From: Candidatus Eiseniibacteriota bacterium
GTDB lineage: Bacteria; Eisenbacteria; RBG-16-71-46
Assembly (NCBI GenBank): GCA_963717935.1
Contig: CAVQXP010000003.1
Location: 56,819-120,818 of the forward strand
DNA: 64,000 nucleotides
Direction: 5' to 3'
The translations under genes were made by a program, and so were the position numbers. The notes below the pieces were generated by a model, which was given only the letters and a program-made list of their open reading frames with translations, did no database searches and was not told where the DNA came from. Below, piece after piece: positions 11,533 to 18,337 of this stretch (its first letter is position 1; every line of letters begins with the position of its first letter).

Positions 11533-12484
11533 ATGAGACGCCCCGTCCTGCTCCTCGTCCTGGTGTGCCTGGCCATGGCCGCCGCTCCCGCTGCCCGTGC
11601 CCAGCGGACCTTCGACGAGGTCGTGATCACGCCCACGAAGCTGACCGATGGCCTCTGGATGATCACCGGGGCCGGCGGGAACCTGCTGGTCTGCGCGGGC
11701 CCGGACGGCGTGCTGCTGGTGGACGCCCAGTACGGGCCGCTCGCGGCGAAGATCCTCGCCGTGGTGGACTCGCTCTCCGGCGGCCGTCCACTGCGCTTCG
11801 TCCTCAACACCCACTACCACGGCGACCATGTCGGCGGCGACTCGGCCATGGCCGCGGCGGGCGCGACCATCGTGGCGCACGCGAACGCGCGGCGGCGGAT
11901 GAGCGCGGACCGGTTCAACAAGACCCTGGGGGCCACCACGAAGGCGGTGCCGGCCGCGGGGCTGCCCGTGCTGACCTTCGGCGACTCGCTGACCTTCCAC
12001 CTGAATGGCCTGGAGATCCGCGTCCTGCACCTGCCGCCCGGCCACACCGACGGGGACGCGGTGGTCTGGATCCCGGGCGCGAACGTGCTGCACACGGGCG
12101 ACCTGTTCTTCAACGGCACCTACCCGGTGATCGACGCCTCGGCCGGTGGCTCCATCGAGGGGATGCTCCGCGTCCTCGACCCACTGCTGCCCATCGTGAC
12201 GTTCACGACGAAGGTCGTTCCCGGGCATGGTCCGCTCGCCGACCGCGCCGCGCTGCTGCGCTTCCGGGGCATGCTCCTGGCGGTGCGCGACCGCGTGACG
12301 GCGCTCGTGAAGGACGGCCGCACCCTCGGGCAGGTGATGGCGGCGAAGCCCCTCGCCGACCTGGACCGGGATCTGGGGCACCGGCTTCATGACGCCCGAA
12401 GCCTTCCTGCAGATCGCCTACCAGGACCTCTCTCGGGAGCCGCCGCCCCCGCTGCCCGACCTCCTCCACGACCACCACCACTGA
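11533..12484 (+). CDS. Secreted MBL-fold metallo-hydrolase (cyclase-like); apparent +1 frameshift near 12369
   Basis: Signal peptide, NTHYHGDHVGG, GHTDGD, HTGDLFF, PGHG; removing one G gives IWGTGFMTPEAFLQIAYQDLS...HDHHH* ending at 12484. Confidence 0.85.
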
Positions 12485-12493
12485 GCGTCGCGC

Positions 12494-12865
12494 ATGCGCG
12501 CGTTCCTGCTGCTCCTGCCCGCCGGCGTGAGCGCGCTCCTCCTGGGCGCGCACTTCCTGCGCCGGGACGATCCCGGCCTGGTGGTCATCAGCCTGGTGCT
12601 CTTCGGGCTGCTCTTCGTGCGCCGGCTGTGGGCCGCGCGCCTCGTGCAGCTCGGACTGCTCGCGGGCGCGCTCGAGTGGCTGCGCACGCTGGCGGCACTG
12701 CTCCCCGCACGACGTGCCGCGGGCGAGCCCTGGATGCGCCTGGCCGCGATCCTCGGCGGGGTGGCGCTGCTGGCGCTGCTGGGCGCGGCGCTCCTCGAGA
12801 CCCGCAGGCTCAGGGAGCGCTACCGCGGCCCCCGGCCCGCCGGGCGGGTCGGAGGAGCCCGCTGA
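12494..12865 (+). CDS. Small membrane protein
   Basis: 123 aa, four hydrophobic segments, directly after the MBL gene. Confidence 0.65.
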   Translation: MRAFLLLLPAGVSALLLGAHFLRRDDPGLVVISLVLFGLLFVRRLWAARLVQLGLLAGALEWLRTLAALLPARRAAGEPWMRLAAILGGVALLALLGAALLETRRLRERYRGPRPAGRVGGAR

Positions 12866-12904
12866 GCCGGTAGCCGCTTCCACCCGCCCGGGGCGGCTGG
12901 AACC

Positions 12905-13192
12905 TCAGGCGTCGAGGCGGACGGAGCAGCGACCGAAGCGGCCGAAGGCGAAGCTCAGCCGGGCGGGATGCGCGCGAGCCGCCAGCACGTCCCGATGGAC
13001 GTAGAGGGCGATCCCGCCGGCGTCCAGGCACTCATGCCCGGCGGGGTCTTCCGGGATCTCGAGCGACCCGACCGGGCCGCGCTCGACCGTTCATCAGCCG
13101 TGCATGATCGCCTGGAGCGAGACATACAGTGCCCCGCCCCGGGCGGCGATGTACTCCCGGAGTTCCTCGGACTCGAAGCGGGCGTGTCGCAT
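12905..13192 (-). CDS. Candidate small selenoprotein with two adjacent selenocysteines (CC/Se-motif, HesB-like family)
   Basis: MRHARFESEELREYIAARGGALYVSLQAIMHG-TGA-TGA-TVERGPVGSLEIPEDPAGHECLDAGGIALYVHRDVL...RLSFAFGRFGRCSVRLDA*; 55 of the 61 codons after the TGAs end in G/C; SECIS-like hairpin follows. Confidence 0.75.
13060..13085 (-). promoter_or_regulatory. Putative bacterial SECIS hairpin
   Basis: mRNA CGAGCGCGGCCC-GGUC-GGGUCGCUCG; G-led apical loop 17 and 20 nt after the two UGAs. Confidence 0.65.
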
Positions 13193-13263
13193 GGCGGTCA
13201 GCATACCGGAAACCGCGGGGTGGGGCGATTCCCATCCGGGTCGTGCGCTCCTTCGTCTCCGGT

Positions 13264-14163
13264 CTAGGCCCGGCCCTGACGACATGGCTGCGCGCGCCTC
13301 ACGCTTTCCCACTGGATGGTGGGATGCACGATGCCGAAGCGCTCAGAAAGGTCGTGAGCGATGCGCGAGGTGAGATCGTCGTCGAAGGTCGCGCGGTCCG
13401 TGACGAGGTGTGCCGTGAGCGCGGTCTCGGTGGTGCTCATGGCCCAGATGTGGAAGTCGTGCACGTCGACGACGCCCGGCACGGCCTCGAGATAGCCCCG
13501 GACCGCCACCGGGTCGATCCGGCCGGGTACGGCGTCCATGGCCAGATCGAGCGACTCCCGCAGGATCCTCCAGGCACCGACCACGATGAGCGCGCTCACC
13601 AGCAGGCTGACGACAGGGTCGAGCCACGGCCAGCGGGTGAAGACCATGGCCACGCCGGCGAGGACGACTCCGAGGGAGACGGCTGCATCCGCCACGAGAT
13701 GCGAGGCGGCGGCGCGCACGTTCAGATCGTCGCGACGGCCACGTCCCAGGAGCCAGGCGCTCAGACCGTTCACGAGGATGCCGAGCGAGGCCACGGCGAT
13801 GACCGTGGGCGCGGCGACCGGCCCCGGATGACGAAGCCGCTGCACCGCTTCGAGCGCGACGGCGCCCACCGCGATCAGCAGCACGACGGCGTTGGCCAGC
13901 GCCGCGAGGATGGTGGAGCGCCGCAGACCATAGGTGCGCCGGGTGCTGGGCGCGCGTCGGGCCAGGAGGATCGCGCCCCAGGCGAGCAGCAGGCCGAGCA
14001 CGTCGCCGAGGTTGTGACCGGCGTCCGAGAGCAGTGCGAGGGAGCCGGACCGGAACCCGAACACGACCTCGAAGACGACGAAGGTGACGTTGAGCCCCAC
14101 CGCCACGAGGAAGGCGGTGCGGACCCCGTCCGCGGCGGGCGGATGTGGATGGTCATGCGTCAT
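13264..14163 (-). CDS. Cation diffusion facilitator (CzcD/ZitB-like)
   Basis: SLALLSDAGHNLGDV, NVRAAASHLVAD, DVHDFHIWAMST, HPTIQWE. Confidence 0.92.
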   Translation of the reverse strand: MTHDHPHPPAADGVRTAFLVAVGLNVTFVVFEVVFGFRSGSLALLSDAGHNLGDVLGLLLAWGAILLARRAPSTRRTYGLRRSTILAALANAVVLLIAVGAVALEAVQRLRHPGPVAAPTVIAVASLGILVNGLSAWLLGRGRRDDLNVRAAASHLVADAAVSLGVVLAGVAMVFTRWPWLDPVVSLLVSALIVVGAWRILRESLDLAMDAVPGRIDPVAVRGYLEAVPGVVDVHDFHIWAMSTTETALTAHLVTDRATFDDDLTSRIAHDLSERFGIVHPTIQWESVRRAQPCRQGRA

Positions 14164-14196: not shown

Positions 14197-14442
14197 TCAC
14201 GCGGTCGCTCCGGACAGGATCTCCTTCAACTGTTCCACCGAGGGCACGCGTCCGGCGAACTTGAGCTCGCCATCGACGACGAGCCCGGGCGTGGACAGGA
14301 TGCGATAGCCCAGGATGACGTTGAGGTCGGTGATCTTCTCGAGCTCGCAGTCGAGCCCGAGCTCCTTCACGGCGCGCTCGGTGTTCCGGTAGAGCCGTTC
14401 GCAGTTGGCGCATCCGGGGCCCAGGACCTCGATCCGGGTCAT
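14197..14442 (-). CDS. Small thioredoxin/glutaredoxin-like protein (MTH895/TM0996 type)
   Basis: IEVLGPGCANC...STPGLVVDGELKFAGRVPS; AAGGAG RBS. Confidence 0.9.
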   Translation of the reverse strand: MTRIEVLGPGCANCERLYRNTERAVKELGLDCELEKITDLNVILGYRILSTPGLVVDGELKFAGRVPSVEQLKEILSGATA

Positions 14443-14489: not shown

Positions 14490-15524
14490 TCACATCAGCC
14501 AGTTGAACAGGTAGCCCACCAGGACGATCCCGACCGTGACCACCCCGAGGAACACCGCGATCAGCGCGGGTTTGAGCACCTTCCGCAGGATGATGGTCTC
14601 CGGCAGCGACAGCGCGATCACCGCCATCATGAACGCGAGCACCGTCCCCAGCGCGGCGCCCTTCTCGAGCAGGGCATGCACGACCGGGATGATCCCGGCC
14701 GCGTTCGAGTACATCGGCACGCCGATGAGCACGGCGAGCGGCACCGACCACCAGGCCCCCCGGCCCATGATGGACGCCATGAAGTTCTCGGGCACCCACC
14801 CGTGGATGCCGGCGCCCACGGCGATGCCGATCAGGACGTAGGGCCAGACCTTGCCCACGATGTCGCGCACCGCCTCGAGCCCGCGGCCCAGGCGCTCCTC
14901 CCACGTCGTCCGGTGTTCGGGCAGCCCGGCCTCGCCCGCGTCCATCTGATAGACCCAGGGCTCGACGTGGCGCTCGAGCCGCAGGCGACCGATGACCCAG
15001 CCCGCGACGATGGCCACGGTCAGGCCGGTCCCGAGGTAGAGGGCCGCCACCTTCCAGCCGAACAGCCCGAACAGCAGGGCGAGCGCGACCTCGTTCACCA
15101 TGGGGGCCGAGATCAGGAAGGAGAACGTCACGCCCAGCGGGATGCCCGCGGTCAGGAAGCCGATGAACAGCGGCACCGCCGAGCACGAGCAGAACGGCGT
15201 CACGATGCCGAGGGCGGCGGCCAGCACGTTGCCCACCGACTCGGCCTTGCCCGCGAGGATGGCGCGCGTGCGCTCGGGCGTGAAGAACGAGCGCACCACG
15301 CCGACGCCGAACACGACCAGCGTCAGGAGCAGGAGCACCTTGGGTGTCTCGTAGACGAAGAACTCGACCGCGCTGGCGAGGTGCGTGCCGGCGTCGAGCC
15401 CCAGCAGGTCGCGCGTGAACCACGCGGCCGCCTGCTGGAGCGCGCCGTAGAGCGCGACCCAGAGCAACAGGGCGCCCGCCAGGGAGAGGAGCAGGCGCGG
15501 AAGCCGCGCCGGGGGCCTGCTCAT
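14490..15524 (-). CDS. ArsP/DUF318-family permease
   Basis: VTPFCSCSAVP, SAPMVNE, GVPMYSNAAG, ALSLPE motifs. Confidence 0.88.
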   Translation of the reverse strand: MSRPPARLPRLLLSLAGALLLWVALYGALQQAAAWFTRDLLGLDAGTHLASAVEFFVYETPKVLLLLTLVVFGVGVVRSFFTPERTRAILAGKAESVGNVLAAALGIVTPFCSCSAVPLFIGFLTAGIPLGVTFSFLISAPMVNEVALALLFGLFGWKVAALYLGTGLTVAIVAGWVIGRLRLERHVEPWVYQMDAGEAGLPEHRTTWEERLGRGLEAVRDIVGKVWPYVLIGIAVGAGIHGWVPENFMASIMGRGAWWSVPLAVLIGVPMYSNAAGIIPVVHALLEKGAALGTVLAFMMAVIALSLPETIILRKVLKPALIAVFLGVVTVGIVLVGYLFNWLM

Positions 15525-15531
15525 CGGGGTC

Positions 15532-16599
15532 TCACGCCGCCGGCTCGCGGAACCAGCGCCGCCGCAACCACAGCGCCACGTTCACCAGGCCGATCAGGGC
15601 CGGCACCTCGACCAGCGGCCCGATCACCGCCGCGAAGGCGGCGCCGTGGTGGATGCCGAAGGTCGCGACCGCCACGGCGATGGCCAGCTCGAAGTTGTTC
15701 GAGGCGGCGGTGAACGAGAGCGTCGCCGACTGCGGGTAGCTCGCGCCCACCCGCTTGCTCATGAAGAACGAGACCATGAACATGACGACGAAGTAGATGA
15801 GCAGCGGGATGGCGATGCGCACCACGTCGAAGGGCAGCTGGACGATCTTCTCGCCCTTGAGCGAGAACATCACGACGATGGTGAAGAGCAGGGCGATCAG
15901 CGTGATCGGGCTGATCTTCGGGATGAACCGGCGCTGGTACCAGTCCCTTCCCTTCGCCCGCAGCAGCGCGAAGCGCGTGATGATCCCGGCCAGGAACGGA
16001 ATGCCGAGGTAGATGAAGACGCTCCGGGCGATCTCGGCCATCGTGATGTTCACGGCCACGCCCTTCAATCCGAGCCAGCCCGGCGCGAGCGTGATGAAGA
16101 CGTAGGCGTAGAGCGGGAAGAAGAGCACCTGGAAGACCGAGTTGAAGGCGACCAGGCCCGCGCAGTACTCGCTGTCGCCCCGGGCCAGGTCGTTCCAGAC
16201 GATGACCATGGCGATGCAGCGCGCCAGGCCGATCAGGATGAGCCCCACCATGTACTCGGGCTGGTCCCGCAGGAAGAGCACGGCGAGGCCGAACATGAGG
16301 ATCGGGCCGACCACCCAGTTCTGCACCAGCGAGAGCGCGAGCACCCGCCCATCGCGGAAGACGCGGCCCATCTCCTCGTAGCGGACCTTCGCCAGCGGCG
16401 GGTACATCATGAGGATGAGCCCGATGGCGATGGGGATGGACGTGGTGCCGGCGTTGAAGCGGTTCAGGAAGGGCACCAGGCCGGGGAACCGCCAGCCACC
16501 GCCGACGCCGACGGCCATGGCGAGGAAGATCCAGAGCGTCAGGTAGCGGTCGAGGAAGGAGAGCCGGCCGGTGACTCCGGCAGGGGAGGGCTCAGGCAT
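15532..16599 (-). CDS. arsB: ACR3-family arsenite efflux transporter
   Basis: [48 protein letters not shown]. Confidence 0.95.
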
Positions 16600-17068
16600 G
16601 CGAAGGTCCGCTTCGGCGGGAGGGCGCGCGCGCGGGCGATGCGCGCCGGGCCCGGCGGGCGGGGCGGGGTGCCGCGACCTGCGCGAGACGCGACGGCGCC
16701 CGCCGGGCCGGTGGCAGGGCGCACAGCGCCTCGACCGGGACGGCCTTCACGCTGCGCAACCGGCGGCGGTCCTCGAGGATGCGGGGCTCCCGGTCGAGCG
16801 GCCCGCGCAGCAGGGCCAGCACCGCGCGGGCGTAGGGGTTGCGCTTCTCCGTGGCGAGCGCGTAGTGGCTCCAGCGGCCGTCGCGCCGGTCGGCCACCAG
16901 TCCCGCGACCCGGAGCAGCGCCAGGTGCTTCGAGACCGTGGAGGGAGCGAGCCCGAGCACGGCCTGCACCTGGCAGACGCACAGCGGGCCGGCCTCGAGC
17001 AGCTTGAGGATGCGCGTGCGGGTCGGGTCGCCGGCGGCCTTGAGCGCCGCCTCGAGCTCAAGCAGCAT
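16592..17068 (-). CDS. arsR: ArsR/SmtB family repressor
   Basis: [17 protein letters not shown] metal site, [27 protein letters not shown]. Confidence 0.9.
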
Positions 17069-17079
17069 GGCCGTCCTTC

Positions 17080-17126
17080 CATTTCGCCATGTGACGAAAT
17101 GTAGTATCATGGCGCGTGGCCGTCAA
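17080..17126 (-). promoter_or_regulatory. sigma70-type promoter overlapping a palindromic ArsR operator
   Basis: TTGACG (17126-17121)-N17-TACATT (17103-17098); inverted repeat CATTTCG-N8-CGAAATG at 17080-17101. Confidence 0.7.
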
Positions 17127-17220
17127 GCGGCTCCGGGTTCGCCGGGCCGTCCGTGCCGCCGCGGTGCCCGAGATCGAGAGGCTGCTCGAGCCCCGAACGC
17201 CGAGTCCAAGGAGGATCCCA

Positions 17221-17622
17221 GTGACAGGTCGCACCGGACGCACCGCGCTGCTGCTCGTGAGCCTGGTGCTCATCGCTGCCGTGCCCGCTCTCGCCCGCAA
17301 GGCCCCGAAGCCCGCGCCGCCCGCCGCGCTCCCGCGCCTCCTGGACCTGGGCGCGACGAAGTGCATCCCGTGCAAGCGCATGGCCCCCATCCTCGAGGCG
17401 CTCAAGGTGGATTACGCCGGCGCCGTGGACGTGCAGTTCATCGATGTCTGGCAGAACCCGCAGGCCGGCAGGCCGTACGGCATCCGGCTGATCCCCACGC
17501 AGATCTTCTTCGACCGGGCGGGCCGCGAGCGGTTCCGGCACGAGGGCTTCTACGCCCGCAAGGAGATCGAGCGGATCTTCAAGGACAGTCTCGGCGTGGC
17601 CCTGCGCCCCGCGGCGAAGTAG
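17221..17622 (+). CDS. Exported thioredoxin-family protein
   Basis: Signal peptide; DLGATKCIPCKRM; IRLIPTQIFFD; RHEGF; GTG start after AAGGAGGA. Confidence 0.88.
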   Translation: MTGRTGRTALLLVSLVLIAAVPALARKAPKPAPPAALPRLLDLGATKCIPCKRMAPILEALKVDYAGAVDVQFIDVWQNPQAGRPYGIRLIPTQIFFDRAGRERFRHEGFYARKEIERIFKDSLGVALRPAAK

Positions 17623-17638
17623 CGGGACCGGGGGACGC

Positions 17639-18337
17639 GTGGACGTCCTGGAGGGTCTGAGCGAGCAGCTCGCCTCGGTCATCGCCCACAGTCCCGCGCT
17701 GGCGCCGCTGGCCGCGTTCCTCGGCGGCGCGCTCACCGCGCTCAACCCGTGCGTGCTGGCGATGGTCCCGCTCATGGTCGGCTTCTCGGCCGGCCTGGTC
17801 GGGCGTGGCGCGACGGGGCGCCCCTGGCGGCGCACCCTGGGTTTCTCCCTGCTCTTCGTCGGGGGCTTCGCGCTCGAGCTGGCGCTGCTCTTCACCGTCT
17901 TCTCCGGCGCGACGGCGGTCCTGAGCGCGCCCTGGTGGCGCTACGTGCTGGTGGCCGTGTGCGCCGTCACCGCGCTGCACCTGCTCGGCTGGCTGCGCCT
18001 GCCGTCGATCCCCCTGCCGCCGGCCGCCGCGCGGGCCGCGGGCGCGCTGGGCGCGCTCACGCTCGGCTTCGTCTTCGGGATCGTCTCGCTGCCGTGCACG
18101 GGGCCGGTGCTGCTGCTGCTGCTGGCCCTGGTCCCGCGGATCGGCGCGGCCGCGGCGGGCGGCCTGCTGTTCGCCTACGGGCTCGGGCACTCGCTGCTGC
18201 TGCTCGTGGCCGGTACCTCGGTCGGCGCGGCCGCGGCGCTCGCCCGCCCGGGCCGTCTCCAGACCGCGACCCGCTGGGTGCGCGTGGTCGCGGCCCTCCT
18301 GATCCTCGCGGGCGGGGCCTGGTTGTTCACGCACTGA
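17639..18337 (+). CDS. CcdA/DsbD-like transmembrane disulfide reductase
   Basis: LNPCVLAMVP and SLPCTGPVL paired PC motifs; YGLGH; six TM segments. Confidence 0.85.
   Translation: MDVLEGLSEQLASVIAHSPALAPLAAFLGGALTALNPCVLAMVPLMVGFSAGLVGRGATGRPWRRTLGFSLLFVGGFALELALLFTVFSGATAVLSAPWWRYVLVAVCAVTALHLLGWLRLPSIPLPPAAARAAGALGALTLGFVFGIVSLPCTGPVLLLLLALVPRIGAAAAGGLLFAYGLGHSLLLLVAGTSVGAAAALARPGRLQTATRWVRVVAALLILAGGAWLFTH

Follow-up and report, generated by a model that had tools for sequence, protein, structure and literature searches.

Insertion of selenocysteine (Sec) in bacteria is understood as a matter of one UGA codon and one hairpin at a set distance from it. A locus in Candidatus Eiseniibacteriota bacterium raises the question of whether two UGA codons in a row can be read in this way by means of a single hairpin. 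The window, that is, the whole stretch of DNA analysed (64,000 nucleotides of contig CAVQXP010000003.1), contains a short reading frame interrupted by TGATGA, which an initial annotation, made from the sequence, had proposed as a small protein with two adjacent Sec residues.

A reading frame with two consecutive stop codons

The proposed frame of 32 codons, TGA-TGA and 61 further codons on the minus strand is exact to the nucleotide. It opens with an ATG at 13192, runs through 32 codons ending in IMHG, reaches TGATGA at 13096-13091 and continues for 61 sense codons to a final TGA at 12907-12905. The features are as follows:

12905..13192, minus strand: gene of the putative Sec-Sec clade (CC/Se motif family), for a 95-residue IscA/HesB-like protein with G32-U33-U34
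13094..13096, minus strand: first in-frame TGA (U33), in the column where relatives have their single Sec or first Cys
13091..13093, minus strand: second in-frame TGA (U34), in the column where Cys-Cys and Sec-Cys relatives have their second Cys

The sequence of this one genome carries limited weight. It had been pointed out that 55 of the 61 codons after TGATGA end in G or C; the count is right, but one alternative frame is nearly as rich (49 of 60), and GC3 was discarded as coding evidence. Genome-wide there are 1427 TGATGA sites, 156 with both flanks open and six with a comparable hairpin; this gene alone combines both features, with about 0.5 such sites expected by chance under a hairpin rule derived from this very gene. 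The hairpin itself is not unusual in this GC-rich genome (z of -0.09 to -1.63 against shuffles), so its single-genome energy was also set aside. As the single sequence is only suggestive on these two grounds, the case rests on conservation across genomes.

In 16 independent, non-overlapping close pairs of loci, the synonymous share of codon changes in the gene frame is 0.52 upstream and 0.49 downstream of the TGAs, against 0.10-0.15 in the other frames. Purifying selection acts on both TGA flanks in one frame, and the gene is almost certainly intact despite its two back-to-back stop codons. No match to the protein was found in the plasmid search or in the Pfam search.

Distribution and phylogeny of the family

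TGATGA is found in 71 of 71 clade loci examined, from 66 genomes of six phylum-level groups, with 25-73% protein identity among the carriers. The initial annotation had left room for TGC or TGT as the true codons; neither occurs at either site in these 71 loci. With stops masked and columns set by the profile, TGA,TGA falls in the motif columns of all 60 aligned loci (56 genomes), and one locus that the alignment did not cover has the same codons.

In six-frame searches, 13 of the 206 genomes of its own phylum proved to carry the family; the figures were 29 of 251 for an Anaerolineae-type class, 5 of 201 for a Myxococcota-type phylum, and 4 of 14 and 6 of 151 for two further phyla. Among Bacillota-type genomes, a search with the family model NF041239 matched 90 of 351, and all ten two-TGA rows proved to be in-frame TGATGA; since these rows had been selected for having two stops, they were placed on a tree with the motif masked. 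In this tree (100 columns, midpoint root only, without the frameshifted or cut loci L039, L191 and L194, which were also excluded from the pair test), 67 UU rows make up one side of a branch with support of 100/99, against 49 others (36 single-Sec, 8 Cys-Cys and 5 other). Each of 20 weak family rows was given a better score by the non-UU profile than by the UU profile, and no Cys-containing member inside the UU clade was found by the tree or by this profile test. Judging from the sequences, the UU clade is separate from the other CC/Se members and apparently obligate for Sec-Sec.

Homologues were expected to hold Cys at the two motif columns, and this is the case in sister branches. The GCC of a Cys-Cys member aligns on the GUU of the window protein (HHalign of the profile, probability 90.9, E 1.2e-6), and Cys comes right after Sec in 6 of 37 single-Sec rows, which identifies both columns as Cys/Sec columns. 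Because no Cys form was found in the clade itself, this evidence is drawn from relatives at about 24% identity. A Desulfobacterota-type single-Sec branch (L209-L215, L218) combines G-U with a C-terminal Cys-x-x end, reminiscent of the C-terminal Cys of IscA.

A genome of the same genus holds the gene in two copies, one of them with a frameshift past residue 67, and about 5 kb from the first there is a remnant of the downstream part alone (L017-L019). A DNA pattern scan returned at least 120 loci; among the matches listed, 6 are family members and 114 are chance. In the contigs of four DNA runs at 82% likeness, the TGATGA bin is the deepest, and no substitution falls there among 40 of the 75 difference rows; this observation was given no weight as evidence.

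A conserved hairpin with two spacing classes

The hairpin first placed at 13085-13060 was retained with its GGUC loop, which lies 17 nt past the second UGA and 20 nt past the first, but its core was narrowed:

13063..13080, minus strand: bacterial SECIS core, a 7-pair stem (-12.3 kcal/mol) capped by the GGUC loop at 13073-13070

The bSECIS model, as described in the part of PMC13188914 devoted to it, has a G at the loop start and a spacing of 16-37 nt. The window hairpin agrees with this model (7 bp, GGUC, 17 and 20 nt), so that the bacterial SECIS geometry claimed for it holds, and to this can be added covariation across loci.

The GGUC loop is present in 52 of 60 loci. Its distance from the second UGA is 17 nt in 15 loci (among which one locus with a non-G loop in its best hairpin is counted), 20 nt in one and 21 nt in 44. 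The loop is read in different codon phases in the two main classes (GPVG vs xSGR/L), and for this reason selection on the protein does not explain its conservation; the RNA motif itself is preserved.

Covariation was assessed in 42 distinct rows of the 60, leaving out duplicates and five loci with a shifted loop or one of other than 4 nt. In this alignment 97.3% of cells pair, five of the seven pairs have changed on both sides, and the closing pair is C-G in 31 rows and A-U in 11; these counts are inflated by kinship, and the structure was drawn from the same sequences. As controls, none of 500 shuffles reached the score and slid structures paired in 27-48%. Within the hairpin, synonymous changes are depleted (7 of 98, compared with 105 of 406 elsewhere; p 2e-5). 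On this comparative sequence evidence, the conserved compact hairpin is a SECIS.

Each of the two distances in the gene also occurs singly in single-Sec genes: 17 nt in selD of the same genome and 19-20 nt in eight Desulfobacterota-type relatives. In Bacillota, perfect stems are weak in single-Sec members of NF041239, while UU members retain a compact stem by the same measure; the window SECIS is likewise stronger and more compact than that of the Bacillota single-Sec members.

Selenocysteine machinery of the genome

The Sec machinery that such a gene would need is present in the source genome, with selA, selB and selD scoring over their cut-offs and a tRNA-Sec at C4:1910457, beside selD. A second tRNA-SeC call by ARAGORN (G000:C2:66885-66982) resembles coding sequence and was rejected. 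The selD gene is itself a selenoprotein gene (C-S-G-U-A-S-K), with an in-frame TGA and a small G-loop hairpin (L010:1380-1560; G000:C4 near 1909300). It is frameshifted about 20 codons past its TGA, probably through an assembly error. Formate dehydrogenase matches in this genome have no internal stop and hence offer no SECIS for comparison.

Across carriers, selA was found in 53 of 56 other genomes, but also in 61 of 80 non-carriers of the same phyla (one unpublished genome, G026, being among the 80, and also among the genomes without a match in the search of the own phylum). Co-occurrence with selA is therefore necessary rather than telling; a contrast is seen only in the Myxococcota-type group, where 5 of 5 carriers have selA against 3 of 15 non-carriers.

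Predicted fold and relationship to known families

AlphaFold2 models the protein as a single domain (pLDDT 93.7), in which the segments before and after the TGAs are interleaved strands and residues 32-34 form the turn between strands 21-31 and 35-43. U33-U34 is thus predicted to be exposed at the tip of a beta-hairpin in an IscA/HesB-like fold. Of 11 VIA fold matches, the top seven belong to IscA/SufA/DsrR-like proteins or to other small proteins of Fe-S biosynthesis, with middling Z of 3.5-5.3, and IscA/SufA-type chains fill the first eight Foldseek rows (best E 0.035, none reaching 0.001). The likeness to IscA (1r94; Z 5.3, rmsd 3.2 over 75 residues) lies in the predicted fold, whereas identity to the IscA/SufA/DsrR chains is only 7-12%.

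In IscA, a reactive residue lies near position 35, and the A-type carriers of the IscA/HesB kind bind their cluster through three Cys, one near 35 and two in a C-terminal CxC. The window protein has no C-terminal CxC, and a function as Fe-S carrier is not established because these ligands are absent. Its single Cys is found in one sub-branch only:

12926..12928, minus strand: Cys89, kept only in the sub-branch with 17-nt spacing

Cys89 is invariant in 12 of 12 downstream halves, and a rough pattern finds it in nine of the 14 loci with 17-nt spacing and in none of 46 others. It may act as a resolving cysteine.

Membership in the CC/Se family, as first suggested, stands in part. NF041239 (Moor_selen_rel) covers residues 8-75, across both TGAs, so that similarity does extend to both sides of them, and the window protein and the members of this family are alike in size, in motif position (residues ~30-34 of 90-100) and in the N-terminal two-thirds. 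However, with C in place of U the window protein scores 38.2 bits (E 1.2e-9), under the cut-off of 40, carries two TGAs and belongs to a separate clade that is not nested among the described members, which have Cys-Cys, Sec-Cys or a single Sec where it has UU. The model matches 12 of 14 aligned members, 38.2 bits being the best of the 14, and one Bacillota two-TGA row reaches 42.7. In Table 1 of PMC13188914, NF041239 is entered with one Sec (CxxU). TIGR01911 (HesB-like selenoprotein) matched neither the protein nor this genome.

Proposed decoding of the tandem UGA and alternative explanations

Sec is, in all likelihood, inserted at both UGA codons, as the conservation of codons and hairpin suggests; taken as a whole, the locus is very probably best explained as an intact selenoprotein gene in which both consecutive UGAs are read as Sec. 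The GG loop of one compact SECIS would bind the SelB-GTP-Sec-tRNA complex and serve the first UGA at a distance of 20 nt. The ribosome would then advance by one codon with the upper part of the stem (10 nt past the second UGA) still folded, and a second ternary complex on the same hairpin would serve the second UGA at 17 nt; in the other sub-branch the corresponding distances would be 24 and 21 nt. The product would be an IscA/HesB-like protein of about 10 kDa, with U-U as a diselenolate pincer or an eight-membered diselenide. Each Sec insertion has to compete with termination, and two insertions in succession may yield little full-length product. The yield may accordingly be low and dependent on selenium.

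Among other explanations, a mainly regulatory role fares best, although it is unlikely as the main role and is compatible with reading of both codons as Sec. The double UGA would be a selenium switch or attenuator, with the full-length protein, or translation coupled to the next gene, appearing only at high levels of Sec-tRNA. In several loci the start of the next gene falls on or beside the final stop (at -4 in L175, -1 in L184, -4 into Acr3 in L185 and +2 in L202), and read-through could therefore gate it. The window gene, however, comes at the end of the series on its strand and has a convergent gene beyond it, and a full conserved domain exceeds what a leader peptide needs.

It is decidedly improbable that the first UGA is read as Sec and the second terminates, to give a 33-residue peptide ending in Gly-Sec and a separately started downstream half. 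SaoC offers a precedent in its UGA-UAG ending, described in the part of bioRxiv 10.1101/2022.07.06.499078 that deals with it, and gene callers do annotate the downstream half alone. Since an in-frame ATG, GTG or TTG lies within 12 codons past the TGAs in 42 of 60 loci, separate starts are possible in some of them; such a start is absent in the other 18, and in the window gene the first one is at residue 69. The ATG within TGATGA opens only a frame of 3-111 codons without conservation, and the interleaving of the two halves into one domain also argues against this explanation. The second codon is TGA in all 71 loci, never TAA or TAG, although the final stops use all three.

Still less probable is that Sec enters at one site while the other is decoded by a near-cognate tRNA for Trp or Cys, or by a different route independent of SECIS, with low-level U-W or U-C as the product. 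Leaky read-through of UGA as Trp is known in bacteria, and the Sec-Cys forms of the sister branches show that Cys occurs in the second column. If Cys or Trp sufficed, however, TGY or TGG would be expected to have become fixed somewhere, and neither has in 66 genomes; moreover, both UGA-loop distances lie within the SECIS range published in PMC13188914. A pseudogene or sequencing artefact has a negligible probability: this assembly does have frameshift-like errors (as in selD) and a relative copy (L018/L039) is frameshifted, but TGATGA recurs in 66 independent genomes at the identities given above, with purifying selection on both sides.

Genomic neighbourhood and possible function

The gene closes a series of genes on the minus strand that are related to arsenic and metals, with a divergent pair beyond them:

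13200..13205, minus strand: hexamer resembling a -10 box, 7 nt upstream of the ATG; Shine-Dalgarno absent
13264..14163, minus strand: CDF cation-efflux transporter, ending 71 nt upstream of the gene
14197..14436, minus strand: MTH895/ArsE-family thioredoxin-like protein (TIGR00412, 99.6 bits, cut-off 62)
14490..15524, minus strand: ArsP_1 permease
15532..16599, minus strand: Acr3 arsenite efflux transporter (454.5 bits, cut-off 282.8)
16592..17110, minus strand: ArsR/SmtB metalloregulator
17116..18337, plus strand: thioredoxin-like protein (CIPC) and CcdA/DsbD-type membrane protein, divergent

All four copies from the genus have a -10-like hexamer 6-7 nt before the ATG and no SD-like motif, while an SD-like motif is present at each of 11 other loci of the phylum. 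A consensus promoter scan at the locus gave nothing. From the sequence pattern, a leaderless transcript from an own promoter is probable in this genus.

Acr3, ArsP, ArsM or ArsC is encoded within about 7 kb in 23 of 41 loci and absent in 18. Aldehyde:ferredoxin oxidoreductase (AOR) is encoded next to the gene at eight of ten Bacillota-type loci, against one of 40 elsewhere; in 8 of 10 Bacillota loci, the gene comes after ferredoxin and AOR, with an intervening ThiS-type gene where checked. Of 40 non-Bacillota loci, nine have a homologue of the tungsten-cofactor radical SAM maturase in the neighbourhood. These counts are not independent, as kin share context.

It is about an even chance that the protein acts as a vicinal diselenol/diselenide that serves its operon partners by binding, or handling by redox chemistry, either a soft metal(loid) or a metal cofactor. 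The substrate would be As(III) species in ArsR/ArsE/ArsP/Acr3 islands such as that of the window, and the role in AOR operons might be tungsten-pterin or Fe-S assembly. Re-reduction could be provided by thioredoxin/CcdA or, in its sub-branch, by Cys89. The assignment is a loose one because 18 of 41 loci are without arsenic transport or enzyme genes. A wider proposal is put forward more tentatively: the family would be a widespread obligate clade whose compact SECIS reloads SelB, the diselenide would be a high-affinity handler of arsenic or of the tungsten cofactor, and double recoding would make the output of the protein, and that of the next gene in some operons, depend on selenium supply.

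Annotation and precedents

As anticipated, gene callers miss the gene, and database records hold halves only. A library of 1.84 billion representatives gave 25 matches, of which three span residues 1-32, 21 begin at residue 36 or later and one, the 548-residue repeat protein P0008, was dropped as compositional chance. Profile searches too returned downstream halves, and NCBIfam 20.0 contains no model specific to the UU clade. The family is thus invisible to annotation. Records of the C-terminal half alone, named "hypothetical protein", are found at NCBI for the thermophilic Bacillota Thermosediminibacter litoriperuensis, Thermovenabulum gondwanense and Biomaibacter acetigenes. These are cultured species, and an experimental test is therefore within reach.

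The closest precedent for a predicted consecutive Sec-Sec is the algal PDI_e (GUGUU), described in the relevant section of PMC7539508 as the first of its kind, with no bacterial homologue found there. In contrast to the window protein, PDI_e is eukaryotic, has a thioredoxin fold and is decoded through a 3'-UTR SECIS. Decoding two adjacent UGAs in bacteria is a different problem, since the bacterial SECIS sits in the coding region at a fixed distance. Bacterial proteins with a vicinal Cys-Sec pair (SaoL, SaoC, HgcA) share the Sec beside a Cys, and double selenoproteins (UxxU, MbdU, ArsM fusions) share the two Sec per chain, both often in metal(loid) neighbourhoods; these proteins are without a UU motif in Table 1 of PMC13188914 (2026), and none of the 119 prokaryotic families in that table has one.

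The passages covered of the Haft and Gwadz preprint, of BSepDB (its family table lying outside the scope) and of the GOS paper likewise contain no bacterial UU. A term search of deep-Sep had no match, and wider literature searches, whose scope did not extend to RefSeq itself or to Haft & Tolstoy 2025, returned none. Within the literature searched, tandem Sec recoding is undescribed in bacteria; the machinery and the superfamily are already known. UGA-UGA under one hairpin, with two discrete spacings and in six phylum-level groups, provides ready-made substrates for studying SelB recycling, spacing tolerance and competition with release factor 2, and the family could guide the engineering of multi-Sec proteins. 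If both codons are indeed read as Sec, chemistry would gain a natural, ribosomally encoded vicinal diselenide.

Other features of the window and assembly

At ~39.7 kb of the window, inside the gene for the secretin (GspD) of a type II secretion cluster, GC content drops abruptly from about 0.70 to 0.45 and does not recover before the contig ends (39750-64000). The drop is probably due to foreign DNA or to a chimeric join made in assembly, and it leaves the gene untouched. At 11533-12873 (plus strand), a metallo-beta-lactamase-fold gene has a SoxH-related hydrolase as its best match, below all cut-offs shown; it seems to shift frame near 12390, possibly through an indel. Finally, two elongation-factor GTPase matches with near-identical scores, on G000:C3 12417-15439 and G000:C4 3493-18649, suggest that this region is duplicated or doubly assembled.
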